DNA of 38,746 nucleotides from a virus (lineage: Duplodnaviria; Heunggongvirae; Uroviricota; Caudoviricetes). Location of the stretch: IMG/VR virus record IMGVR_UViG_2740892229_000013; one strand, given 5' to 3'. Shown piece after piece: positions 2,904 through 38,746 of the stretch. How positions within the stretch are numbered: position 1 is the first letter of the stretch; every line of letters starts with the position of its first letter. The notes below the pieces were generated by a model. It was given only the letters and a program-made list of their open reading frames with translations. It was not told the origin of the DNA and did not search any database. The position numbers and the translations under genes were made by a program.

Positions 2904-3047
2904 ATGGGCGATTTCAAGAAACGCCTGAAGGAAAGAGCCGAGATGGTCAGAAAGCAAAACGCCTCTTCTGTCATCAGATACGCAAGGCAGTTTAGTCGCA
3001 ACAACAAATCAGTTGAGGAAAAGATCCTTAGCGTAATCGGTCGATAA
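2904..3047 (+). CDS. Possible small basic protein (47 aa, MGDFKKRLKERAEMVRKQN...)
   Basis: Hand-translated ORF below the track cutoff. ATG lies 2 nt after the upstream stop. A hairpin (AAGGCCA / TGGCCTT) follows. No other support. Confidence 0.35.
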   Translation: MGDFKKRLKERAEMVRKQNASSVIRYARQFSRNNKSVEEKILSVIGR

Positions 3048-3177
3048 TTATTAAGGCCATCAGCATTGGTGGCCTTAAATGACCATCCTGTTTCCCGCAG
3101 GCTAAAAACACCAACCTCTTACCTCCAGGCAACCGACAAACCCACCTGTTCCCGTCCGGCTACCGCAACTTTCCACT

Positions 3178-3206
3178 TTGACGCCTTATTCGTACAACGA
3201 TAATTA
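3178..3206 (+). promoter_or_regulatory. Candidate sigma70 promoter TTGACG-N17-TAATTA
   Basis: -35 at 3178-3183, -10 at 3201-3206. Predicted start ~3213, just before box 3219-3231. Confidence 0.5.
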
Positions 3207-3218
3207 ACACAAACAAGA

Positions 3219-3231
3219 AAACAATTTGTTA
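3219..3231. promoter_or_regulatory. Palindromic leader box AAACAATTTGTTA
   Basis: Same 6-1-6 architecture, 8 nt upstream of the AAGGA RBS of the 3252 gene. Confidence 0.55.
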
Positions 3232-3251
3232 TTTACGATAAGGAATTAATC

Positions 3252-3734
3252 ATGAATTTTATCGCTACTGTAAACGCACCCGCACATGGCAATATCGCTG
3301 TAACGTTCTCTGACATTGAAAAACGAGTACTTGGTGCATGGCGCGACAATGAGACGGTAGAACTGTCAGCACAAGAAAAATGCATTATTGCACGCGACAT
3401 CATTGGCAATCGTCGTTACTCGCGGGTATTTGAGAAAGCGTATGTGGTAAATTCTGGATTCGGAACGTTCGTCTTTCCGGTGCGCTCCGGGCGATTCTGC
3501 CAGTCCAAGCTGATTGAGTTCGCTACGCAGATTTCTGTCTGGATTAAAACTCAATCGTCGTTCAAATTTTCCGACGATGAAGCAGTATCGCAGGGGATGC
3601 GGATCGCCAACAATGCAATTAAATGCAAAAACATTACGTATACCGCTGGCGTTGATACATGGAAACTGTTTTGCGCTAACTTTATGCTGAATGTATACGC
3701 AAGCAACCGCATCCACATCCTTGATGGCGTGTAA
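3252..3734 (+). CDS. Hypothetical protein (160 aa)
   Basis: ORF track. AAGGA RBS. Hairpin follows. Confidence 0.75.
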   Translation: MNFIATVNAPAHGNIAVTFSDIEKRVLGAWRDNETVELSAQEKCIIARDIIGNRRYSRVFEKAYVVNSGFGTFVFPVRSGRFCQSKLIEFATQISVWIKTQSSFKFSDDEAVSQGMRIANNAIKCKNITYTAGVDTWKLFCANFMLNVYASNRIHILDGV

Positions 3735-3737
3735 CTG

Positions 3738-3766
3738 AGAAGAGGGCCAGAAACGGCCCTTTCTCT
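3738..3766 (+). terminator. Hairpin terminator (T-rich 3' arm)
   Basis: AGGGCC (3743-3748) / GGCCCT (3755-3760), extended by GAGAA/TTCTC with one bulge. Confidence 0.5.
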
Positions 3767-3862
3767 ATAGCCACCAGCTGCCGCAGGGAAATTTTCAGAA
3801 ACGGCGAGGAACGTATTCGTGAGCCGACGGGGAACGGCCAGGATTTTTTCGGGAAACGGCTG
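3747..3862 (+). repeat. Second cluster of the GGGAAACGGCTG-type iteron motif (4-5 copies)
   Basis: AAACGGCCC at 3751-3759, AAACGGCGA at 3799-3807, GAACGGCCA at 3832-3840, AAACGGCTG at 3854-3862 (last two 22 bp apart). GGGAAACGGCTGCAT at 3851-3865 mirrors GGGAAAAGGCTGCAT at 603-617. Confidence 0.55.
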
Positions 3863-4152
3863 CATTCGCCTTTGTGTAGAAAAAACATCGGGAAGCTGGT
3901 GGAATCCAACCAGCGGTTGTCGGACAGGTGAGCGGGGAAAATCATGATGACTTTCGTCGCCTGAGACATCCAGATTTCTTTCGTAGCGTAATCACATATG
4001 TGATTAAGTGGTGTGATTATGTGAAAAATCACGCGCACATAATACGCGAGCGGATACGGAACAAAACAAAATGCCGATCCGCGCCGACAATTAAACGCGG
4101 ATCACATAGCAAGAATAAAAGCCAATGATTAACCATACACCATAACGCAATA

Positions 4153-4180
4153 TAACGCGATTTAAGCGCGTTAATGCGCT
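4153..4180. promoter_or_regulatory. Overlapping GCGC-type palindromes (operator-like)
   Basis: TAACGCG (4153-4159) / CGCGTTA (4167-4173), 7-bp arms with a 7-nt spacer. AGCGC (4165-4169) / GCGCT (4176-4180). Confidence 0.4.
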
Positions 4181-4274
4181 AAGTAATGGGTATGTACTGG
4201 TAAGGATATAGAAGCGCGTCTATGGCGTTATTTTGGCGCTTATTTTTATGTTGTTGGCTTGAGTCAAAGACAAT

Positions 4275-4297
4275 AAAAAAAGCGCCATCATTGGCGC
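4275..4297 (-). terminator. Rho-independent terminator (minus strand)
   Basis: GCGCCA (4282-4287) / TGGCGC (4292-4297). The A7 run at 4275-4281 gives a U-run on the minus strand. Confidence 0.75.
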
Positions 4298-4321
4298 GTT
4301 ATGGTGGAAGTATTGGAAACG

Positions 4322-4345
4322 AAAAAAGCGCCCATAGTGGGCGCT
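4322..4345 (-). terminator. Rho-independent terminator (minus strand, possibly bidirectional); 19-bp hairpin copy 1
   Basis: AGCGCCCA-TAG-TGGGCGCT at 4327-4345. An A6 run at 4322-4327 and ATTTTATTT flank it. Lies 6 nt after the stop of the 4351..4581 gene. Confidence 0.8.
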
Positions 4346-4350
4346 CGATT

Positions 4351-4581
4351 TTATTTATGTAGACTGATTTCAAATCCCATTTCTACAAACGCTTTTAACA
4401 TTAAAAATATATCAGCGTCGTTCACGTCTGCTTTTTTTCGCTCCTGGTCGCTCAATAAGTCAATTTTGCGCGTCGTTTCATCTATAAGCTCGACTGCGCG
4501 CCCAGCGTAACCAGCGATCCCAGCGATGCGATTAACATAATATTCGTTATGGACGTTAACGCCAGCGATAAGAACAAACAT
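4351..4581 (-). CDS. Hypothetical protein (76 aa)
   Basis: ORF track. AAGGAG RBS 7 nt upstream on the minus strand. Tandem terminators downstream. Confidence 0.7.
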   Translation of the reverse strand: MFVLIAGVNVHNEYYVNRIAGIAGYAGRAVELIDETTRKIDLLSDQERKKADVNDADIFLMLKAFVEMGFEISLHK

Positions 4582-4601
4582 GATTAAGCTCCTTAAAAAA
4601 A

Positions 4602-4805
4602 TTAAATAGAATTTTGAAGTTTTCCGATTAATGCGCTTAAACGTAAGTATTCACGTTTGCGCTTGCAATCTCGCTTGCTGTTAAGCAAATCAGAAAACGT
4701 AAAATTTAATTGGTCGCGTTGCGCGATTAAATCATCGATTAATTCCAGTTTATAAGCGCGATACTTTGCGCGATATTCCGCGCGGATCTTGTCATAGCTG
4801 ACCAT
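4602..4805 (-). CDS. Hypothetical coiled-coil-like basic protein (67 aa)
   Basis: Track ORF 4602..4850 trimmed to ATG 4805 (AAGGAG 8 nt upstream). The longer version would read through the conserved hairpin. Confidence 0.65.
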   Translation of the reverse strand: MVSYDKIRAEYRAKYRAYKLELIDDLIAQRDQLNFTFSDLLNSKRDCKRKREYLRLSALIGKLQNSI

Positions 4806-4822
4806 TTTCAAAGCTCCTTTAA

Positions 4823-4841
4823 AGCGCCCATAGTGGGCGCT
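4823..4841 (-). repeat. 19-bp hairpin copy 2 (AGCGCCCATAGTGGGCGCT), intercistronic
   Basis: Identical 19-mer to 4327-4345. Shared flanks: A before, yGATT after. Sits between the 216-aa and 67-aa genes. Confidence 0.8.
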
Positions 4842-4853
4842 TGATTCCATTAA

Positions 4854-5504
4854 TTACGCTTTGAAAGCATCAGCTAAATAATTGTAGAAATCATTTTTAA
4901 TGAAGCGATATTGCTGAGTACCAGCTTTCGCACTCCCAGCTCCTTTGACTTTTTCAACAAGTCCAAGACGTTCGCAAAGATTGATCAACTGGTTGGCTTG
5001 AGTATAGCCAGCGTCCAATTTAATTTCACACGCTTTTTTAGCTTCATTCATTAAATCGAAAACAGCGCCATTGGTGAACGTGTCGATCTCGTCGTTAATC
5101 ATATCGATTAAAGCGAATACACGAGATCCTGACATATCAGCGATGGAATAAACGCATTTACCAGATTTAATTGATTTAACCAGATAAACCAGTTTTTCCA
5201 GAGAATAACTATTAGTCATTGCATCACGGAAAAATACTTCTGGCGCTTGTTTGCTTGCTTTAATCGCATAGTAGAAAACAGAGCATAATTTTTCGTCTTC
5301 TACTGCGTTTACGACGTTGTTGATGAAGTAAGCAAGTTTAGTGGTCGCAGCTTGCATATTTGCTTTGTCTGCTTTAGTGTGCGTACCATTTTTATAATGT
5401 TCGTTATATGTTTGAGTTGCCAGATCTGCTTTATCGCGCAGCTCGTCGGATACAATAGATGCAGCTTCAATGATGGACTTTTTAGAAATGATAATGTTAG
5501 CCAT
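4854..5504 (-). CDS. Hypothetical protein (216 aa), AT-rich gene
   Basis: ORF track. AAGGA RBS and its own promoter. 17 G+C in 60 nt at 4861-4920. Confidence 0.8.
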   Translation of the reverse strand: MANIIISKKSIIEAASIVSDELRDKADLATQTYNEHYKNGTHTKADKANMQAATTKLAYFINNVVNAVEDEKLCSVFYYAIKASKQAPEVFFRDAMTNSYSLEKLVYLVKSIKSGKCVYSIADMSGSRVFALIDMINDEIDTFTNGAVFDLMNEAKKACEIKLDAGYTQANQLINLCERLGLVEKVKGAGSAKAGTQQYRFIKNDFYNYLADAFKA

Positions 5505-5569
5505 GATAATTTTTCCTTATGTAAATTTAAAATTTATTGTCGTTAGCGTCTTCGCTTTCGACGAGTTCA

Positions 5570-5597
5570 ATTATCGATACGCGAAAAAAGATTGCAA
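5570..5597 (-). promoter_or_regulatory. Candidate sigma70 promoter TTGCAA-N16-GATAAT with A/T-rich UP-like tract
   Basis: Minus-strand -35 at 5597..5592 and -10 at 5575..5570. A/T runs at 5600-5625 lie upstream. Confidence 0.55.
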
Positions 5598-5743
5598 GTG
5601 TTTTTTTTAAATTTTTTGCAGGGATGAAAGTCCTAGAAATAAAAGCGAGATCGTCGAAGGTGTTCCCTAAATAAATAATCGATTCCGGCTTTCGACCTTA
5701 TATATATTTAGGTTATTTGATTTGTAGATATAAAGAAGTGATG

Positions 5744-5775
5744 TGAAAAATAATAACCGGACTTAGCCGGTTATT
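5744..5775 (-). terminator. Rho-independent terminator (minus strand)
   Basis: AATAACCGG (5752-5760) / CCGGTTATT (5767-5775), 6-nt loop. The A-run at 5744-5750 gives a U-run on the minus strand. Confidence 0.85.
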
Positions 5776-5787
5776 AACCTTATAGAT

Positions 5788-6096
5788 TTATTGAACAGAC
5801 TCTACAGCCTTACGATTGGTGTCAAATAGCGCATCAACGAACTGTGCCGATGACTCGCTAGATTCGCAATCCAACATTGCCCGTTCTTCATTTGCCACTT
5901 TCTTACACAGTTCCACATTCTCACCTATCGCTTTTCCTGCTTTTACGGCTGCCGAAAATTGATACATGCAAACTGATACATTCTGAGACGTTGAGCACAC
6001 GTCATTCATCAGCGACTGAATGACAGGCTTATAGTCCATTGCATTTGCCGCAACTGAGCAAAGTAAAAATAATGGTGGTAACAATATCGATTTCAT
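5788..6096 (-). CDS. Secreted (periplasmic) Cys-containing small protein (102 aa)
   Basis: N-terminal signal peptide MKSILLPPLFLLCSVAANA with an A-x-A cleavage motif. Five Cys in the mature part. Confidence 0.75.
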   Translation of the reverse strand: MKSILLPPLFLLCSVAANAMDYKPVIQSLMNDVCSTSQNVSVCMYQFSAAVKAGKAIGENVELCKKVANEERAMLDCESSESSAQFVDALFDTNRKAVESVQ

Positions 6097-6099
6097 AAC

Positions 6100-6624
6100 T
6101 CAAAAAGGCAAAATTCGTTCAACCCAATCGAACAAAACAACTATTTTTCTACCGTTCTCGACACGTAGTGTAACCTGACAAGCATCTGCGCCTGCTGACA
6201 CCCCCTCAATTTCACGGCCATCCGCCATGTACACCCTTATAGATTTGTTTGCTTTGTAGGCTTGGTTGCAAATTGCAAAAAAATCGCGGCGTGATGGCCG
6301 ATTATCGACATAATCAGGGTGAACTGTTAGTCGACCTTTGAAATCGTGAGCGATACTGTCAACCACACCTGATTCAATTGTACTAATGCGTTCAAGTGGG
6401 AGCCTTATACGATTTTCTTTGTCAAAAGGGGCTGGGCAAAGGTCAACTTTGTTACGAGATGGCATGAGGCCATAAACGTACATGCAAAACGCCTGGCCAT
6501 CTTCGAGAGTGACCCTTACAGGAATTTGTTCTCTGCGCCAGAACATCAGTAGTTTTTCAACGTTAGTGTAATCTCGCGGCCAGAGTTCAGCTTGGATACC
6601 GTAGGTAATATCTTTGGTTGTCAT
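6100..6624 (-). CDS. Hypothetical cytoplasmic protein (174 aa); possible tandem Sm/SH3-like (Rof/Hfq-like) barrels
   Basis: Track ORF 6100..6702 trimmed to ATG 6624 (the rest overlaps the upstream gene). Two segments, IPVRVTLEDGQ...IRLPLERISTIE and IRVYMADGREIEG...VVLFDWVERI, fit the Rof/Hfq pattern from memory. Confidence 0.7.
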   Translation of the reverse strand: MTTKDITYGIQAELWPRDYTNVEKLLMFWRREQIPVRVTLEDGQAFCMYVYGLMPSRNKVDLCPAPFDKENRIRLPLERISTIESGVVDSIAHDFKGRLTVHPDYVDNRPSRRDFFAICNQAYKANKSIRVYMADGREIEGVSAGADACQVTLRVENGRKIVVLFDWVERILPF

Positions 6625-6628
6625 GTCA

Positions 6629-7093
6629 TCACAGAGTTGTTGGCAGAATGTCGATGTCACCAGAATTGCTGGTGAACACCCTGAACGCTTTTGTGTCTCC
6701 ATTCTTCAGAGTCGTTTCTCGCTCTTGACGAGCGGGGTTTAGAGCACATAAACCTGCACCTTCAAGAGATGCACCCACAATTAATTCTCCGGCATTTAAA
6801 TGGAAAGTCGCTTTTTCGCCTGTAGCCAGTTTTGCGACAGTTTCGCCATTGATGAAAATGGAAGCATCACATCCAGCTCCTACAAAACCTGTGTCTCTCA
6901 TTACCACCAACGTAGCTGGCGCTGCGCTTTGATACTTGAACACTTTGGCCTGCGGTGCTGGTTTGGCGTCATGGATTGATATTGGACGTGATTGGCACGC
7001 GGTAAGCATCAACACTGGTAACGTTAGTAGAGGGAGAAGCGAGTATTTCATGTTAGTTTTAGAACAGAAAGTGAACAGTATGGGAGACTTCAT
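6629..7093 (-). CDS. Outer-membrane-type lipoprotein (154 aa; alternative start 7051)
   Basis: Lipobox L-T-A-C with Gln at +2. GGGAG RBS before ATG 7093. Beta-rich mature domain. Confidence 0.8.
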   Translation of the reverse strand: MKSPILFTFCSKTNMKYSLLPLLTLPVLMLTACQSRPISIHDAKPAPQAKVFKYQSAAPATLVVMRDTGFVGAGCDASIFINGETVAKLATGEKATFHLNAGELIVGASLEGAGLCALNPARQERETTLKNGDTKAFRVFTSNSGDIDILPTTL

Positions 7094-7119
7094 CTTTGTC
7101 TCCCTAATTGATAGCGTGA

Positions 7120-7398
7120 TTATTTTAATCTGCTTAATAGCGTTTCGAGATCTTCCTTTGTCATATTAGAGTTCTCATAGATACGCATGATTTTCTCACG
7201 AGTCTTAGCGGAAGCCCCGACAGAAGATATAACCTTGTCAAAGTCGGCCATTGTCAATTGTTCCAGAATGGTATTAATGACTTCAGCCTTAGACATTTTG
7301 ATATTTTTTTCTTTTAGTTTCACTTGAAACTTTCCAAGTTTGTCATTGGCCTTATCAGACAATGCTACCTGACAGTAAGTTGTTTTCTTTTCACTCAT
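7120..7398 (-). CDS. Hypothetical protein (92 aa), N-terminal ribbon-helix-helix-like
   Basis: ORF track. The strand-helix-helix pattern TTYCQVALS / DKANDKLGKF / SKAEVINTILEQL is a pattern-level call only. Starts 2 nt after the helicase stop. Confidence 0.65.
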   Translation of the reverse strand: MSEKKTTYCQVALSDKANDKLGKFQVKLKEKNIKMSKAEVINTILEQLTMADFDKVISSVGASAKTREKIMRIYENSNMTKEDLETLLSRLK

Positions 7399-7400
7399 AA

Positions 7401-8960
7401 CTAATCTCGTTTCAGAACTCCAAAATCGAATGCTCCATCAATAGGCAATACACCTTCTGCAAAGCCAGGTGTGGTGTCGATGATGTGTTTTCGCTCATAA
7501 GAGTGAGACAACAGGTATTTGTTGCTAATGTCAATGAAATCAGTGATAAAACACACGTTTGCCTGATTTTTTTTGGCTCGTAAGCCACGACCGACACGCT
7601 GTCTCATTTCAACTTCTGCTTTCCCACCACCAGCAAGAATGACCGCACCAACGCTTGGCACATCAACACCAACATCCAGAATAGTCGAGCCTATTAAAAC
7701 ATCTATTTCACCAGACGCTAAACTGTTCAGCTTTGCTTGCCTTGTCGTCTGGTTAGATTCCCCATAGATGAAATCAACTCTAAGACCTGACTCCTTCATC
7801 ATCTCCATCAGGATTTGCCCGTGGCGTTTAAGACGAACCAGAGTCATGCAGTTGAGTGAATGTTGCTTATAAAGCAATGCCTCGCGCACTATGGCCTCGT
7901 TACGTCCCAAATTATACACGATCCCCAACTGATAAGCCTTTTGGTAGGCGGTGCTCATACCAACTCTAAAATTGAGATGTTTGTTGGCAAGTTCGGCCTT
8001 GATTCTGGCCTCGTCTGGCTTGTAGGCAACTTTATGATAAAGGAAGTACGGCTTTGCCAGAATGCCTCGATCAATCAGGTACTTTTCTGTGACTTTAATT
8101 TCAATTCGCCCGGCCACCGCCATCAGGCGCATGTTGGCTTCCGTCGAATCCTTCATGAACGGCGTGGCTGTAAGCGCCAGACGATAGTCTGCGTTCACAC
8201 ATAATCTGGCGATGTCATAGAAATTTGAGCCTGAAGACTCATGCGCCTCTTCCAGAATAAGAAGAGAGACACTTGAAAGGAAGCGTTTCACCAACTCCCG
8301 ACGTTTGAGGTGGTAGCTTTTCTTATCTGGTGTTGCATCGCGTGGTGGTTCTTCGAGGAAACTTGCAAGAGTTTGAACTGTAGCGACGTTGATATGTCGT
8401 GATACCTGGAACTCACCCGAGCCAATGACTCCAACCTTTTGGTCTTTTAACCACGGTTCGCCATTTTTGGCGCGGTAGTCGATGGATCTCTGGAAGTTTT
8501 CGGCCATTTGAAACATCAGAACAGAGCGGGTTGTTAAAAATAATGTCATTCGACCGATACGTGCAGCTGCTTTGCAGGCAACATTAGATTTCCCGCCACC
8601 AGTAGCGATCTGCGCAATCATCATTCCCTCTCGAACCAGTGTTTCCACAGTCTGATCCTGATACGCATAATCAGGATTGTATGGGAATGGGTTAACCGCC
8701 GGATTTGGTTTTCCAAGCGCCGGGGCTTTGTCTTTGCGGATATGAACACATTTGATGCCCGCCTTGTTCAAGTTCGCCGCTACAGGCTTGGCAAAGCCTG
8801 CAGGGAACGAGTTTTTACTCCAGTTGAACATTGTGCTTGTGCCCTTCCAGTCGCCAGTCTCGACTTCGTAGCTCAACATCTGTTGCACCAGTTGCTTTAC
8901 CTTGTCATCTGCGCCAGAAATAAGCGCATTAACTGCGTTAGATACAATCCGAACAGTCAT
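7401..8960 (-). CDS. SF2 (DEAD/DEAH-type) DNA helicase, 519 aa
   Basis: Motif I ATGGGKS, motif II LEEAH, motif III TATP, motif VI QRVGRGLR, all read in the translation. Confidence 0.9.
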   Translation of the reverse strand: MTVRIVSNAVNALISGADDKVKQLVQQMLSYEVETGDWKGTSTMFNWSKNSFPAGFAKPVAANLNKAGIKCVHIRKDKAPALGKPNPAVNPFPYNPDYAYQDQTVETLVREGMMIAQIATGGGKSNVACKAAARIGRMTLFLTTRSVLMFQMAENFQRSIDYRAKNGEPWLKDQKVGVIGSGEFQVSRHINVATVQTLASFLEEPPRDATPDKKSYHLKRRELVKRFLSSVSLLILEEAHESSGSNFYDIARLCVNADYRLALTATPFMKDSTEANMRLMAVAGRIEIKVTEKYLIDRGILAKPYFLYHKVAYKPDEARIKAELANKHLNFRVGMSTAYQKAYQLGIVYNLGRNEAIVREALLYKQHSLNCMTLVRLKRHGQILMEMMKESGLRVDFIYGESNQTTRQAKLNSLASGEIDVLIGSTILDVGVDVPSVGAVILAGGGKAEVEMRQRVGRGLRAKKNQANVCFITDFIDISNKYLLSHSYERKHIIDTTPGFAEGVLPIDGAFDFGVLKRD

Positions 8961-34660: not shown

Positions 34661-35623
34661 ATGTGGTACAGGGAAGGTACTATCACATTTACACAGGGCA
34701 GCAATACTCTGGTTGGGGCAGGGACAGCCTGGAACGTAACAGCTAATGGTGTGTTGCCGGGGATGATCGTCATTGGCCCCGACAATAAGCTGTATGAGAT
34801 CAAGCGCGTAACCAGTGATACGAACATTGTTCTCTCAGAACCTTATACCGGCGAAACTCAGTCTGAAGTTCCGTGCCGAATCATTACGACCTATGAAGGC
34901 GACTTAACACAGTTTAGCGCGCGCTTTACAGCACTAATGTCGCGTATGTCGGCTGATTCCAAGTCCATGCGCAGTTGGTTGACTGCTCTGGATGAGGTGA
35001 CAATCGAGCGTGAAGACGGTACAGAAGTGACCGTTAAGCCGCTAATGCAGATCGTCAACGAGCACAACGAAAACGTTGAGTGGTATAAAAATAACACTGA
35101 CGCGATTGATGCTGCTGGCGACAAAGCTCGTGAGGCGGCGGCCAGTGCTGCCGCAGCAGCAGAAAGCGCCAATATCGCTGGAGAAAAAGCCTCTCAAGCG
35201 TCTCAAAGTGCATCCGCTGCAGAGTCCTCAAAAAGCGCGGCGGCCACCAGTGCCGGTGCCGCGAAAACGTCTGAAACGAATGCTGCAGCGTCACAAAAAT
35301 CTGCAGCCACTTCTGCATCCACCGCGACCACGAAAGCGTCAGAAGCTGCCACCTCAGCCCGGGATGCGGCGGCCTCAAAAGAGGCAGCGAAATCATCAGA
35401 AACGAGCGCAGCCTCGAGCGCCAGTAATGCCGCTTCCTCGGCAACGGCGGCAGGAAATTCCGCGAAGGCGGCAAAAACGTCCGAGACGAACGCCAGGTCT
35501 TCTGAAACGGCAGCGGGACAGAGCGCCTCGGCTGCGGCAGGCTCAAAAACAGCGGCTGCGTCGTCTGCCAGTGCAGCGTCAACAAGTGCCGGGCAGGCCT
35601 CAGCCAGTGCCACCGCCGCCGGA
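34661..35623 (+). CDS. Tail fibre protein, 5' part (truncated by scaffold gap)
   Basis: AAGGAG RBS. N-terminus MWYREGTITFTQGSNTLVGAGTAW is typical of phage fibre N-termini. From ~35212 it carries the Stf-type Ala/Ser-rich repeat. The ORF runs into the N-run. Confidence 0.85.
35212..35623 (+). repeat. Stf-type Ala/Ser-rich repeat block (copy in the phage fibre gene)
   Basis: Near-identical at nucleotide level to 36331-36372, 36455-36815 and 36827-37165 (AAESSKSAAATSAGAAKTSETNAAASQKSAATSAS...). Confidence 0.85.
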
Positions 35624-35633
35624 NNNNNNNNNN
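35624..35633. other. Scaffold gap (10 N)
   Basis: Run of n characters. The flanking sequences belong to different genes (fibre repeat versus lom 3' end). Confidence 1.
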
Positions 35634-35708
35634 GTCGCTTATGAAGGCTCCGGCAGTGGTGACTGGCGCACTGACGGGTTCATCGTGGGTGTTGGTTATA
35701 AATTCTGA
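35634..35708 (+). pseudogene. lom: 3' terminal fragment of a lom (Ail/Lom outer-membrane protein) gene, 24 codons
   Basis: Translation VAYEGSGSGDWRTDGFIVGVGYKF* matches my memory of the lambda Lom C-terminus. The 5' part is lost in the gap. Confidence 0.85.
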
Positions 35709-35734
35709 TTAGCCAGGTAACACAGTGTTATGAC

Positions 35735-35761
35735 AGCCCGCCGGTTCAGGCGGGCTTTTTT
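35735..35761 (+). terminator. Rho-independent terminator
   Basis: AGCCCGCC (35735-35742) / GGCGGGCT (35749-35756), T-run 35756-35761. Confidence 0.9.
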
Positions 35762-35772
35762 GTGGGGTGAAT

Positions 35773-38746
35773 ATGGCAGTAAAAATTTCAGGTGTACTGA
35801 AAGACGGCACAGGAAAACCGGTACAGAACTGCACAATCCAGCTGAAAGCAAAACGTAACAGTACCACGGTGGTGGTGAACACGCTGGCATCTGAAAATCC
35901 GGATGAAGCCGGGCGTTACAGTATGGACGTTGAGTACGGTCAGTACAGCGTTATTCTGTTGGTGGAAGGATTCCCGCCGTCACATGCCGGGACCATCACA
36001 GTGTATGAAGATTCCCGACCCGGTACGCTGAATGATTTTCTCGGTGCCATGACGGAGGATGATGCCCGTCCGGAGGCACTGCGCCGTTTTGAACTGATGG
36101 TGGAAGAGGTGGCGCGTAACGCGTCCGCGGTGGCACAGAACACGGCAGCCGCGAAGAAGTCAGCCAGCGATGCCGGCACATCAGCCCGTGAGGCGGCAAC
36201 CCATGCGACTGATGCTGCAGGCTCAGCACGTGCAGCCAGCACATCAGCCGGGCAGGCCGCGACGTCGGCTCAGTCAGCGTCTTCCAGCGCAGGAACGGCA
36301 TCAACAAAGGCTACTGAAGCATCAAAAAGTGCTGCCGCTGCAGAGTCCTCAAAAAGCGCGGCGGCCACCAGTNNNNNNNNNNCGCAGCCAGCACGTCAGC
36401 CGGACAGGCCGCGTCGTCGGCTCAGTCAGCGACTTCCAGCGCAGGAACGGCATCAACAAAGGCCACTGAAGCATCAAAAAGTGCTGCCGCTGCAGAGTCC
36501 TCAAAAAGCGCGGCAGCTACCAGTGCCAGTGCCGCGAAAACGTCAGAAACGAATGCGGCAGCGTCACAACAATCAGCAGCCACTTCTGCATCCACCGCGA
36601 CTACGAAAGCGTCAGAAGCTGCCACCTCAGCCCGGGATGCGGCGGCTTCAAAAGAGGCGGCAAAATCATCAGAAACGAACGCATCCTCGAGCGCCAGTAG
36701 CGCAGCTTCCTCGGCAACAGCGGCAGGAAATTCCGCGAAGGCGGCAAAAACGTCAGAGACGAACGCCAGGTCTTCTGAAACGGCAGCGGGACAGAGCGCC
36801 TCGGCTGCGGCAGGCNNNNNNNNNNGGCAGCGTCACAAAAATCTGCAGCCACTTCTGCATCCACCGCGACCACAAAGGCGTCAGAAGCTGCCATCTCAGC
36901 CCGGGATGCGGCGGCCTCAAAAGAGGCAGCGAAATCATCAGAAACGAACGCATCATCAAGTGCCAGTAGTGCAGCTTCCTCGGCAACGGCGGCAGCAAAT
37001 TCTGCGAAGGCGGCAAAAACGTCCGAGACGAACGCCAAGGCTTCTGAAACGGCAGCGGGACAGAGCGCCTCAGCTGCGGCAGGCTCAAAAACAGCGGCTG
37101 CATTATCTGCCAGTGCCGCGTCAACAAGTGCCGGGCAGGCCTCAGCCAGTGCCACCGCCGCCGGAAAATCGGCAGAAAGTGCTGCATCGTCTGCTTCAAC
37201 AGCCACAACGAATGCTGGCGAAGCCGCTGTACAGGCCAGCGCAGCAGCGAGGTCAGCTTCCGCAGCGAAGACATCCGAGACGAACGCGAAAGCGTCGGAA
37301 ACCAGCGCAGAATCCTCAAAAACGGCAGCGGCATCGTCCGCCAGTTCGGCGGCGTCATCGGCATCATCGGCGTCTGCTTCAAAAGATGAGGCGACCAGAC
37401 AGGCGTCAGCAGCGAAGAGCAGCGCCACGACGGCATCCACGAAAGCAACAGAGGCGGCAGGCAGTGCGACGGCGGCAGCACAGAGCAAAAGTACGGCGGA
37501 ATCCGCGGCAACGCGCGCCGAGACAGCGGCAAAACGGGCAGAGGATATTGCATCCGTCGTGGCGCTTGAGGATGCGAGCACGACGAAAAAGGGGGTAGTA
37601 CAGCTCAGCAGTGCGACCAACAGTACGTCTGAAACGCTGGCGGCAACGCCAAAGGCAGTAAAATCAGCCTATGACAATGCAGAGAAACGTCTGCAGAAAG
37701 ACCAGAACGGCGCTGATATACCCGACAAGGACCGCTTCCTGAGTAACATTAATGTTTACAGCAAAGGTGAAGTGGATCAGAAAAAGGGGATGCGATACGT
37801 TGTGGTAAATGCCCCGGCGGGTGTCCAGGAAGGTAAATATTATCCGTTAGTGATAAAAAGGAATGACAGCCATCGGGCATCCCGCGTTGTCATTTCAACG
37901 CCAAGTCGCTCAGCTAATCACAGAATGAATAATTGTGAGTTTAATGGTTTTGTTTGCGCAGGCGGCTGGACGGACCGGGGTAGCTATGCCTGTGGTATGT
38001 TCTGGGCTTATTCAACATCGGAACGCGCTATTCATTCCATTCTGATGAGTAATAAAGGCGATACCGTAGACAGCGTATTCTATATAGAAGGTGGGGCATT
38101 TCCCGTAGAGGTCTTTTTAGAAGAAGGTCTCTCCGTTACTGCACCTGCTTCTGATTATATTGTTGCTGAAACGACTTATAAATTTGGCGCAACTGATCCT
38201 TATTCTGAATCAGTTGCGGTAAATTTAATTTTAGATTTTAAACAAGGTAATGGATTTTATAGTTCATATCCTGTTTTGAGTAAGTCAGACATTAGCGGGA
38301 ATAAGATTTACGCTAATGATGAAGTTATTGTCCGTAGTCAGAACGCGTTAAGGATGATTGCAGGTGATTACGGTGTCATATGGCGAAATGATGGAGCAAA
38401 TACTTACTTGCTCATGACTGATAAAGGCGACCAGTACGGTGGCTGGAACGGTCTTCGACCATTTGCAGTAAATAACGCAACAGGTGAAGTGACGATCAAT
38501 ACACCACTTAATTCTCCTAAGGGGATTAAGGGAAATTCTGATACAGCTACGAAACTTCAGACAGCAATAAAAATATCTGGTGTTTCGTTTGATGGTTCTA
38601 CTGATATCACTTTAACCGCTGCGCATGTTGCTGCTTTTGCCAGAAGAGCAACGGATACGTATGCCGATGCGGATGGGGGCGTTCCATGGAATGCCGAATC
38701 AGGCGCTTACAATGTCACCCGCTCTGGCGACAGCTATATTCTGGTT
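35773..38746 (+). CDS. stf: Lambda Stf-like side tail fibre, broken by two scaffold gaps and open at the window end
   Basis: N-terminus MAVKISGVLKDGTGKPVQNCTIQLKA... matches the recalled lambda Stf. True frames by hand: frame 1 for 35773-36372, frame 3 for 36384-36815, frame 2 for 36827-38746. The distal part carries the fibre repeat GNSDTATKLQTAIKISGVSFDGSTDITLT. Confidence 0.85.
36373..36382. other. Scaffold gap (10 N)
   Basis: Run of n characters. The frame changes across it. Confidence 1.
36816..36825. other. Scaffold gap (10 N)
   Basis: Run of n characters. The frame changes across it. Confidence 1.

Follow-up and report, generated by a model that had tools for sequence, protein, structure and literature searches.

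Is a compact, AT-rich group of genes bracketed by two identical hairpins a cassette that a virus has picked up from elsewhere, or a resident operon whose smaller members come and go? This question is raised by positions 4275-5775 of the 38,746-nt virus record IMGVR_UViG_2740892229_000013 (IMG/VR), the whole of which we call the window. Three minus-strand open reading frames (ORFs) lie in this stretch, named here genes 1, 2 and 3 in the order in which they would be transcribed, and a 19-bp hairpin follows both gene 1 and gene 3. An earlier sequence-only reading had taken the group for a horizontally acquired, strongly expressed accessory cassette. We favor a different account, which taken as a whole we judge moderately probable: a conserved core operon of a phage-plasmid, in which a terminator stem is the site where small genes are gained and lost and whose first gene would encode an early DNA-binding regulator or origin-binding protein. 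The structural and evolutionary side of this account we hold with considerable confidence.

Gene 1 behaves as a core gene of SSU5-type phage-plasmids

The three ORFs proposed by the sequence-only reading were confirmed, and an AAGGA(G) ribosome-binding site precedes each of them:

4854..5504, minus strand: gene 1, 216 aa; phrog_1513; helical N-terminus and predicted C-terminal winged helix
4602..4805, minus strand: gene 2, 67 aa, basic, helical; phrog_6145; optional
4351..4581, minus strand: gene 3, 76 aa, acidic; phrog_1585; optional

Positions 4200-5800 share 94-97% nucleotide identity with the E. coli phage-plasmids CMS-2020a and PhiR41_1, 91% with Cyrano (pLF82) and ~83% with the Salmonella phage SSU5. 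Wherever they were compared, the proteins of the window were 100% identical to those of the complete plasmid NZ_CP027358.1 (110 kb), which we used for counts across a whole element and refer to as the related plasmid. The window also carries a terminase, tape-measure and tail genes, two ParB-like genes and a DEAD-box helicase. On this content and these identities the window is therefore part of a phage-plasmid of the SSU5/pHCM2/pMT1 type, and its source appears to be an E. coli element of that type. Elements of this type are frequent in clinical isolates of Klebsiella, E. coli, Enterobacter and Salmonella, and pHCM2 of S. Typhi and pMT1 of Y. pestis belong to them.

We searched the PLSDB plasmids with gene 1 by tblastn and found it in 815 records, compared with 517 for gene 2 and 373 for gene 3. 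By genus, the plasmid counts for gene 1, the helicase and the large terminase were as follows:

Klebsiella: gene 1, 346; helicase, 346; large terminase, 344
Escherichia: 217; 229; 207
Enterobacter: 91; 92; 92
Yersinia: 62; 62; 62
Salmonella: 49; 49; 50
Citrobacter: 25; 25; 25
Cronobacter: 10; 10; 10

Set against the carriers of helicase or terminase, gene 1 was found in 346/346 Klebsiella, 62/62 Yersinia, 49/49 Salmonella and 91/92 Enterobacter plasmids. The family is otherwise tiny (24 representatives at 50% identity among 1.84 billion proteins); the 12 matching records in the phage collection are all SSU5-like, and the long contigs with gene 1 homologs are mostly ~100-112 kb. Even distant homologs (E-values of 1e-35 to 1e-28) keep synteny, with two ParB_N genes and an ATPase on one side and then a DEAD-box helicase leading to gene 1. 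By this distribution, gene 1 is as universal as the helicase and terminase in the Enterobacterales members of the group, and we regard it as a core gene. The patchy distribution that marks a genomic island or a moron was seen for genes 2 and 3 only. The presence/absence comparison that the sequence-only reading had called for thus gave a split answer: the small genes vary among relatives and can be called accessory, whereas gene 1 is near-universal and cannot.

The stretch is indeed AT-rich, as that reading had claimed. Its G+C is 0.380, compared with an average of 0.479 (standard deviation 0.036) for 1.5-kb segments across the window; just 0.4% of such segments fall below 0.380, and the lowest of them (0.376) starts at 4301. 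The hand counts offered earlier, 17 and 26 G+C per 60 nt, were exact on recount. By gene, G+C is 0.381 for gene 1 (0.35 at third codon positions), 0.387 for gene 2 and 0.411 for gene 3. Gene 1 is also poorer in G+C than its surroundings in four of five distant or divergent relatives: locus L124 (0.414 against 0.551 for the contig), pMT1 (0.395 against 0.476), a Klebsiella relative (0.408 against 0.462) and a Pectobacterium plasmid (0.317 against 0.364). The exception is locus L125 (0.327 against 0.331), which is AT-rich throughout. Because AT-richness persists in distant relatives, the low G+C is therefore ancestral to the gene 1 family, with no sign of recent import. Composition does deviate here as it would in a genomic island or moron (0.38 against 0.479), but the low G+C is best read as an old property of gene 1 itself. 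The claim of horizontal acquisition fails for gene 1, which is near-universal in the group, syntenic, and AT-rich in distant relatives too. The sequence-only reading had itself named what would speak against it, namely universal conservation with the same composition together with a known replication function; the conservation and composition were found, and the match to a known replication function was not.

Elsewhere in the related plasmid, a P-loop NTPase gene (564 aa) at ~82.3-84.2 kb, outside the window, lies under the lowest G+C of the entire element (0.30), so that the operon is not the lowest point of that plasmid. This NTPase region looks a better candidate than the operon for a recently acquired, defense-like island.

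The hairpin as the putative terminator stem of gene 1 and a site of small-gene turnover

As the sequence-only reading had reported, the 19-mer AGCGCCCATAGTGGGCGCT occurs exactly twice in the window, at 4327-4345 and 4823-4841, where none is expected from shuffled sequences. A 34-nt direct repeat (4325-4358 and 4821-4854, 88% identical) encloses the two copies, each of which forms, in the RNA sense, an 8-9-bp stem with 6 G-C pairs and a 3-nt loop. The related GCGCCA-TCAT-TGGCGC at 4282-4297 and the flanking terminators were borne out as well: a scan placed minus-strand terminator-like sites at 4346-4326, 4297-4282 and 5776-5751. Three elements lie downstream of gene 1:

4823..4841, minus strand: internal hairpin copy, followed by UUUAAAGGAG; no U-tract; gene 2 ribosome-binding site 5 nt past the stem
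4316..4345, minus strand: terminal hairpin copy with U-tract UUUUUUCGUUUC; canonical intrinsic terminator; the two-terminator segment has a z-score of -4.5
4275..4297, minus strand: back-up terminator GCGCCAAUGAUGGCGC followed by UUUUUUU; 6-bp stem; found by scan and fold

The terminal copy and the back-up hairpin (4282-4297, tail UUUUUUUAUU) are each followed by 6-7 U and show the stem, loop and U-tract of an intrinsic terminator. The internal copy does not: its tail, UUUAAAGGAGC, has no U-tract, and the scan gave no minus-strand call there.

We oriented relatives by gene 1 and compared the sequence past its stop codon at 77 distinct loci, which were picked by gene 1 homology and not by the hairpin. 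The hairpin was present in 77/77, with the exact stem no more than 40 nt from the gene 1 stop codon in 66; the back-up terminator was found in 62/77, its stem kept and its loop variable. At locus L038, which has no small genes, gene 1 is followed by AGCGCCCACTATGGGCGCT, TTTTTCGTTTC, ~28 nt, and GCGCCAnnnnTGGCGC with a T-run, a layout that reads as a terminator plus a back-up terminator. The tail TTTTTCGTTTC after the terminal stem is invariant across layouts and the last copy always keeps UUUUUCGUUUC, while the internal copies carry different tails (UUUAAAGGAG in the window, UAUUUUUAAGG in SSU5 and UAUUCAAAAG in pMT1). The 19-bp hairpin thus appears to be the intrinsic terminator stem of gene 1 itself. 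The small ORFs sit between a stem copy and the U-tract, and internal stems therefore lack one. In the distant loci L124, L125 and L130, unrelated GC-rich stems with T-runs stand straight after the gene 1 homolog, so a terminator at this place is the ancestral state; its structure and position are conserved, and its sequence turns over in distant homologs.

The 77 loci fall into nine gene and hairpin layouts (H, 19-bp hairpin; g2 and g3, gene 2 and gene 3 families; a and b, subtypes):

H-g2a-H: 24 loci
H-g3a-H: 16 loci
H-g2a-g3a-H (window type): 14 loci
H only: 9 loci
H-g2b-H, with or without an extra empty H: 5 loci
H-g3b-H: 3 loci
H-g2a-g3b-H: 3 loci
H-g3b-H-g3a-H: 2 loci
First H lost: 1 locus

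Just two ORF families, in five subtypes, occupy the site. The g2 family (64-67 aa, basic, helical) has three subtypes; the g3 family (73-76 aa, acidic) has two, which share ~45-50% identity. Neither family occurs outside SSU5-type plasmids, and the members of both are promoterless, each with its own ribosome-binding site. The closest comparisons show where the changes fall. L038 and SSU5 differ by exactly one unit, consisting of a ribosome-binding site, a 67-aa ORF, 8 nt and a second stem, placed between the first stem and the U-tract, with identical flanks; the stems of SSU5 are 247 nt apart. SSU5 has no gene 3. Cyrano has a 76-aa ORF in the same slot and no gene 2, pMT1 has a 75-aa allele of gene 3, and the junctions in Cyrano and SSU5 lie at the stem or the ribosome-binding site. 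For the window-type layout, the g2/g3 junction lies in a shared ribosome-binding-site sequence, TTTAAGGAGCTTAATCATG. Relatives whose gene 1 is at least 96% identical have four different small-gene contents, and the identity of gene 1 is tracked well by that of g2 (r 0.95) and poorly by that of g3 (r 0.52). L072 and L035, two members of a set selected by the hairpin, carry "empty" hairpin units in tandem at a spacing of 44 nt. We conclude that the locus is most readily understood as a core operon whose terminator stem became a docking point for two optional small genes.

How might the exchange occur? The repeated stems, with ~19-25 nt of identity, would provide short homology for unequal recombination or template switching, and exchange at the stems could swap, duplicate or delete the small genes. 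The layout variants, the empty units and flips of the hairpin loop are the pattern expected from such events at a short perfect palindrome. In ~12% of copies (L001, L016, L077 and others), at either position, the loop CTA is replaced by its reverse complement TAG in the RNA sense with the stems unaltered. These flips look like small inversions of the hairpin loop, comparable to the flip-flop of the spacer between short inverted repeats in plastid genomes. There too the loop inverts and the stems are untouched; here the flip is seen at both positions and in several lineages, in the different context of a phage-plasmid terminator.

Lacking a U-tract, the internal hairpin might plausibly act by terminating part of the transcripts or by setting their ratio, as judged from its sequence. 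The internal copies are probably leaky; they may act as leaky attenuators or 3' stabilizers and so set the ratio of gene 1 to small-gene mRNA, along the lines that the sequence-only reading had suggested. Two other readings of the hairpin were discarded. A mobile hairpin of the repetitive extragenic palindrome or miniature inverted-repeat transposable element kind is ruled out by its presence at this single locus in the related plasmid, and an 82-aa form of gene 2 reading through the hairpin has an extension that is not conserved in relatives.

A short hydrophobic ORF (MKSLFTKVFQFILIGVLVVPLVWWWMLAF) at positions 6655-6800 of L125 lies between two terminator hairpins straight after the gene 1 homolog, and may be a second, independent instance in which a very small gene has settled behind a terminator.

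A conserved promoter that is silent in the plasmid state

The region upstream of gene 1 is as well defined as its 3' end. Four features precede the coding sequence, on the strand of the operon:

5751..5776, minus strand: intrinsic terminator of the upstream gene, 10-bp stem then UUUUU; -12.6 kcal/mol, z-score -4.1
5625..5639, minus strand: conserved upstream motif TTTCTAGGACTTTCA, with 13-nt core TTTCTARGACTTT; 27 nt 5' of the -35 hexamer
5570..5620, minus strand: predicted sigma-70-type promoter from a consensus scan; A/T (UP-like) tract 5598-5620, -35 TTGCAA 5597-5592, -10 GATAAT 5575-5570, 16-nt spacer
5539..5562, minus strand: stem-loop GUCGAAAGCGAAGACGCUAACGAC at the predicted mRNA 5' end; fold of -9.8 kcal/mol

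The terminator sequence TAATAACCGGCTAAGTCCGGTTATTATTTT at 5751..5776 is kept in nearly all relatives; it is predicted to end the upstream gene (5788..6096) and to shield the operon from read-through. The upstream motif is kept in relatives with gene 1 49-100% identical and also in the distant L124, a contig of 55% G+C, and its core TTTCTARGACTTT is present as a single copy both in the window and in the related plasmid. We considered whether this motif is a site for integration host factor and rejected the idea, since the consensus was matched in only 32/65 relatives and its ATCAA part does not cover the conserved core. The sequence-only reading had proposed that the operon has its own promoter with an A/T UP-like tract, and the consensus scan found both; CTTGC(A/T) and TCGATAAT of this promoter are conserved across relatives. 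In the stem-loop, the outer pairs GTCG/CGAC become ATCG/CGAT in relatives, a compensatory change, and we infer that it may stabilize the mRNA. No further copies of the hairpin, the promoter type, the 5'-untranslated-region motif or the upstream motif, such as a regulon might have, were found in the related plasmid, and a scan of 3000-7500 against Rfam at E <= 1 returned chance-level matches only.

Published RNA sequencing of Cyrano allowed us to ask whether the operon is active. In lysogeny broth (LB), CYRAN_113 (gene 1) and CYRAN_112 (gene 3) have values of 2.78/2.32 and 2.32/2.32, respectively, given as log2(5+FPKM), where FPKM is fragments per kilobase per million reads, while the adjacent CYRAN_114 and CYRAN_115 are clearly expressed (S1 Table of PMC9928086). 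The values for gene 1 and gene 3 correspond to zero or near-zero reads, the detection floor. Both genes reach only ~5.5 in the columns labeled MB6 (PMC9928086), which we take as bacteria in macrophages at 6 h. Codon usage of gene 1 shows no translational-selection bias of the highly expressed type, unlike that of the capsid gene. The description of the cassette as strongly expressed is thus contradicted for the plasmid state, and of the compositional checks suggested for it, low G+C held and codon bias for high expression did not. A well-formed, conserved promoter that is off in the plasmid state of Cyrano is not what one would expect of a maintenance repressor, a nucleoid protein or a moron, and we infer that gene 1 is used after induction or infection.

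Gene 1 encodes a predicted winged-helix protein

The gene 1 protein matches phrog_1513, a family of unknown function, at an E-value of 6.7e-139, and carries no other label. No Pfam or NCBIfam family was found at E <= 0.1 and no PADLOC family, and searches of the PDB by sequence with both the gene 1 sequence and its profile gave no match. An AlphaFold2 model built with 22 homologs has a mean predicted local distance difference test (pLDDT) score of 80.7 and consists of a long N-terminal helical hairpin (residues 8-68), more helices, and a C-terminal helix-strand-helix-helix-beta-wing unit. In Foldseek, the last ~90 residues align to TubR, HlyU, CzrA, MukE/F, RTP and the winged helix of Orc1/Cdc6, superposing at 3-4 A over 85-95 columns, with weak scores (E of 0.016 or worse); further matches include ArsR, MarR and PerR and are consistent but weak. 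The N-terminal helical hairpin domain of ~115 residues has generic helical matches only, and a viral structure library returned nothing more specific than generic winged helices. The predicted recognition helix is invariant at Y167, T168, Q169, N171, Q172 and L173.

The C-terminus has winged-helix topology in the model and belongs to no curated helix-turn-helix sequence family, so we accept the winged helix as a fold assignment and not as family membership. This agrees with the possible C-terminal winged helix-turn-helix that the sequence-only reading had picked out in the 216-aa protein, and its remark that the three proteins otherwise show no recognizable motif was matched by the lack of any hit above threshold in Pfam, NCBIfam and PADLOC. 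The structural check it had suggested yielded a fold for gene 1, with generic matches that give no function. Compared with winged-helix proteins that carry a helical oligomerization domain (ArsR/MarR, TubR, Orc1/Cdc6), the C-terminal ~90 residues of gene 1 are modeled with the same topology; gene 1 differs in lacking membership of their sequence families and in its N-terminal domain.

Neither small protein adds a function. For genes 2 and 3, no hit in Pfam, NCBIfam or PADLOC passed the threshold; DUF6899 came up in 7/12 members of the gene 2 family (best E 0.0095) but fell short of it, and the AlphaFold2 model of gene 3 (pLDDT 52) is too poor for a fold search. The SSU5 homolog of gene 2 (SSU5_119, phrog_6145) is labeled "MIT family metal ion transporter (CorA)". 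A soluble helical protein of just 67 aa is no such transporter, and the label, which PHROGs repeats in its description, is therefore a propagated annotation error that should no longer be passed on.

A repeat array beside the operon

Beyond the 3' end of the operon lies a group of direct repeats, with a second pair further off:

3860-3851, 3838-3829, 3805-3796 and 3757-3748, minus strand: direct repeats GCCGTT[TC]C[CT][CG] (GCCGTTTC), spaced by 22, 33 and 48 nt
646-677: second pair of the same repeat, spaced by 22 nt

The whole related plasmid holds six matches to this pattern where 1.4 are expected by chance, and four of the six cluster ~500 nt beyond the operon. A repeat cluster ~380-550 nt beyond the gene 1 operon is also present in the distant L124, L131 and pMT1. 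By its arrangement, the array could be an iteron or operator array.

The array falls within a 540-nt non-coding stretch, 3735-4275, between the operon terminators and the convergent gene 3252..3734. This stretch contains conserved blocks, for example GTACATACCCATTAC (minus sense; e.g. 4183-4197), short GCGC-rich repeats and two more hairpins resembling terminators, at 4104-4075 and 4048-4032. It has no Rfam match and is possibly a small RNA or regulatory region.

What gene 1 may do, and the alternatives

Taken together, the conserved predicted winged helix, the silent promoter with its upstream motif, the putative mRNA-stabilizing features at both transcript ends and the unique repeat array lead us to suggest that gene 1 is an early, induction-phase DNA-binding regulator or an origin-binding protein, with genes 2 and 3 as optional partners. 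This functional suggestion is tentative, and we would sooner expect it to be revised than to stand. The operon would be off in the plasmid state and would fire on induction or infection; the target of gene 1 might be the neighboring GCCGTTTC array, and genes 2 and 3 might act as optional modulators of gene 1. Its most specific form is unlikely: gene 1 would be a DNA-binding switch or origin protein that starts the lytic programme, off while the element is a plasmid and acting on the GCCGTTTC array when expressed, genes 2 and 3 would be its interchangeable modulators, and cassette exchange at the hairpin would alter the switch.

Several points weigh against our account. None of the three proteins can be given a function by direct homology, and the fold matches of gene 1 are weak (Foldseek E >= 0.016) and generic. 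Gene 1 is linked to the repeat array by adjacency only, and the second repeat pair is 3 kb away. Silence in the plasmid state was seen in one relative, Cyrano, and in one dataset; a literature search for lytic-cycle transcriptomes of SSU5-like elements returned nothing usable. On the structural side, g2 and g3 stand side by side in the window-type layout with no hairpin separating them, which breaks any strict rule of one stem for each cassette. A homology of 19-25 nt is short for RecA-type recombination, and the proposed recombination mechanism is conjectural. Finally, the sequence of the stem, and not just its pairing, is identical in relatives where gene 1 is 49-62% identical, and it is kept identical in internal copies that have no U-tract, an identity that a pure terminator role does not require. 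It could be explained by exchange between elements in the recent past, by selection that keeps a hairpin at the RNA 3' end, or by a binder that recognizes the sequence.

This last point is what speaks for a reading in which the palindrome serves chiefly to bind a protein, perhaps as the operator of a dimer such as the gene 1 product might form, and is a terminator incidentally. The stem is identical across lineages with gene 1 49-100% identical, with or without a U-tract, and only the 3-nt loop varies or flips, as it would in a symmetric site with a non-contacted center. Yet more distant homologs have unrelated stems with T-runs at the same position, and the sites lie at 3' ends, with none at the promoter. 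The exact 19-mer with its loop also ends a small gene in an unrelated baseplate/tail prophage (L005, 12915-12933; IMG/VR contig 3300031925_000025), and the same stem with other loops occurs in ~40 unrelated viral contigs, so it behaves as a generic enterobacterial terminator sequence. In addition, the set that showed stem identity at 49% gene 1 identity was itself chosen by the stem pattern. We consider the operator decidedly improbable. That the hairpin is an attC-like recombinase site in an integron-like or site-specific cassette system is scarcely credible, even though promoterless ORFs with 3' palindromes stand behind one promoter, the palindrome is duplicated around the inserted ORF and the related plasmid encodes a tyrosine recombinase. 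That recombinase/integrase gene, the sole one in the plasmid, is ~57 kb away, and neither an integrase nor attI lies nearby; just two ORF families are ever found at the site instead of an open cassette repertoire, and the hairpin occurs nowhere else in the 110 kb. Paired recombinase-binding sites would seem to need a longer sequence than a perfect 8-3-8 palindrome, and the hairpin has none of the architecture of attC sites, which are typically bulged and imperfect.

Turning from the hairpin to the operon as a whole, the acquired, strongly expressed cassette from which we started, moron-like and serving host takeover, anti-defense or superinfection control, is improbable, and for gene 1 it is largely refuted. 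It draws on the lowest G+C in the window, a promoter and terminators of its own, proteins without a known family, and genes 2 and 3 that are present or absent among close relatives; PHROGs even lists gene 2 as "moron/host takeover", although this comes by way of the spurious transporter name. Gene 1, however, is core, with genus counts across its 815 records equal to those of helicase and terminase, and its synteny and AT-richness persist in distant relatives. It is silent in Cyrano in LB, where the true morons of that element are highly expressed; there is no codon bias for high expression, and the small genes have no promoter of their own. The anti-defense option in particular finds no defense-model (PADLOC) match for any of the three proteins, and nothing else points there. 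Silence in LB, with modestly higher values in the MB6 columns, would also fit an AT-rich locus silenced by H-NS without a lytic role, for AT-rich DNA with A-tracts is a typical H-NS target, and gene 1 could itself be a nucleoid-associated or "stealth" protein, since its model pairs an N-terminal helical hairpin that could oligomerize with a C-terminal DNA-binding domain, a loosely H-NS-like arrangement. But a nucleoid protein should be expressed in the plasmid state, where the gene 1 ortholog of Cyrano is silent, and gene 1 has no similarity to H-NS, Sfh or other nucleoid-protein families; we think this very unlikely. A lytic replication module is unlikely too. Gene 1 would be an origin-binding initiator, the GCCGTTTC repeats at 3748-3860 its iterons and the AT-rich operon the unwinding region, with transcription from the repressible promoter activating the origin, much as in the C1-repressed kilA-repL lytic replicon of P1 or lambda O and ori. 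The modeled fold matches include the Orc1/Cdc6 winged-helix domain on origin DNA, RTP and phage "replication protein" models; a lytic initiator would be silent in the plasmid, as gene 1 is in Cyrano; the direct-repeat array is unique in the genome and conserved beside gene 1 in distant relatives. The related plasmid has genes for a complete replisome (DnaE, DnaB-like helicase, primase and ligase), and its sole annotated initiator is a plasmid-type RepB-family protein ~40 kb from the operon. Against this, gene 1 has no sequence match to Rep, RepL or O families, and its fold matches are generic winged helices that do not place it among Rep folds. The repeats are ~500 nt from gene 1, with the second pair 3 kb further, and could be the operators of another protein, and the cumulative GC skew of the window tracks gene orientation, with no separate origin signal seen.

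We found no study in the literature on the control of the plasmid/phage switch of SSU5-type elements or on the start of their lytic replication. A universally conserved operon that is apparently silent in the plasmid and encodes a predicted DNA-binding protein beside a genome-unique array would be a concrete candidate for such a switch or origin.

Relation to known systems

The closest described phenomenon to this hairpin slot is the promoter-early stem-loop (PeSL) cassettes of T4-type phages, repeated promoter and stem-loop units that bound indels between close relatives (PMC2839356; Arbiol et al. 2010). PeSLs carry a strong early promoter, are scattered in several hyperplastic regions and flank small ORFs (PMC2839356; PMC4122927). 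In both systems stem-loop repeats flank small ORFs without an assigned function, the junctions of insertions, deletions and replacements fall in the repeats, and recombination between the repeats is proposed. Unlike PeSLs, the repeat here is a bare 19-bp stem with a few flanking bases and no promoter-like site at either copy, and in place of many dispersed copies there is one locus with two copies, in the window and in the 110-kb plasmid alike, and two ORF families.

As Rho-independent tandem terminators, the terminal and back-up copies are ordinary, with a GC-rich 8-9-bp stem, a 3-4-nt loop and 6-7 U, and with a position straight after the stop codon that is conserved in all homologs; what differs is the internal copy, whose stem is kept identical in the absence of a U-tract. 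Morons, as described in lambdoid phages by Hendrix and colleagues, have their own promoter and are typically expressed from the prophage. Genes 2 and 3 resemble them in being small, optional and AT-rich, with a terminator behind them and relatives that are otherwise collinear. Two traits set them apart from classical morons: neither has its own promoter, and the gene 3 homolog is silent in Cyrano in LB. The hairpin-slot pattern is tidy but largely ordinary phage genome biology, and the locus offers a clean natural example of a duplicated terminator stem as a docking point for the gain and loss of tiny genes.

Neighboring genes and other observations

The operon has as neighbors the helicase, an FljA-like regulator, a lipoprotein and small ORFs. 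Just 5' of it, 6100..6702 (minus strand) encodes a 200-aa protein that matches Pfam PF03614, "Repressor of phase-1 flagellin" (FljA-like), at an E-value of 2.5e-84. Its Cyrano homolog, CYRAN_114, is annotated "Transcriptional regulator" and is expressed in LB, and the protein might modulate host flagella. Between this gene and the operon, 5788..6096 (minus strand) encodes a 102-aa protein (phrog_9536) with an N-terminal segment, MKSILLPPLFLLCSVAANA, that resembles a signal peptide as judged by eye. Several close relatives do without it, and in them the terminator directly follows the FljA-like gene.

Two further parts of the window stand out in composition. Positions 35000-37500, probably a tail-fiber region, have a G+C of 0.57-0.62 with strong AT skew, and positions 1-500 have an AT skew of 0.46; both are outliers that deviate in the direction opposite to the operon.

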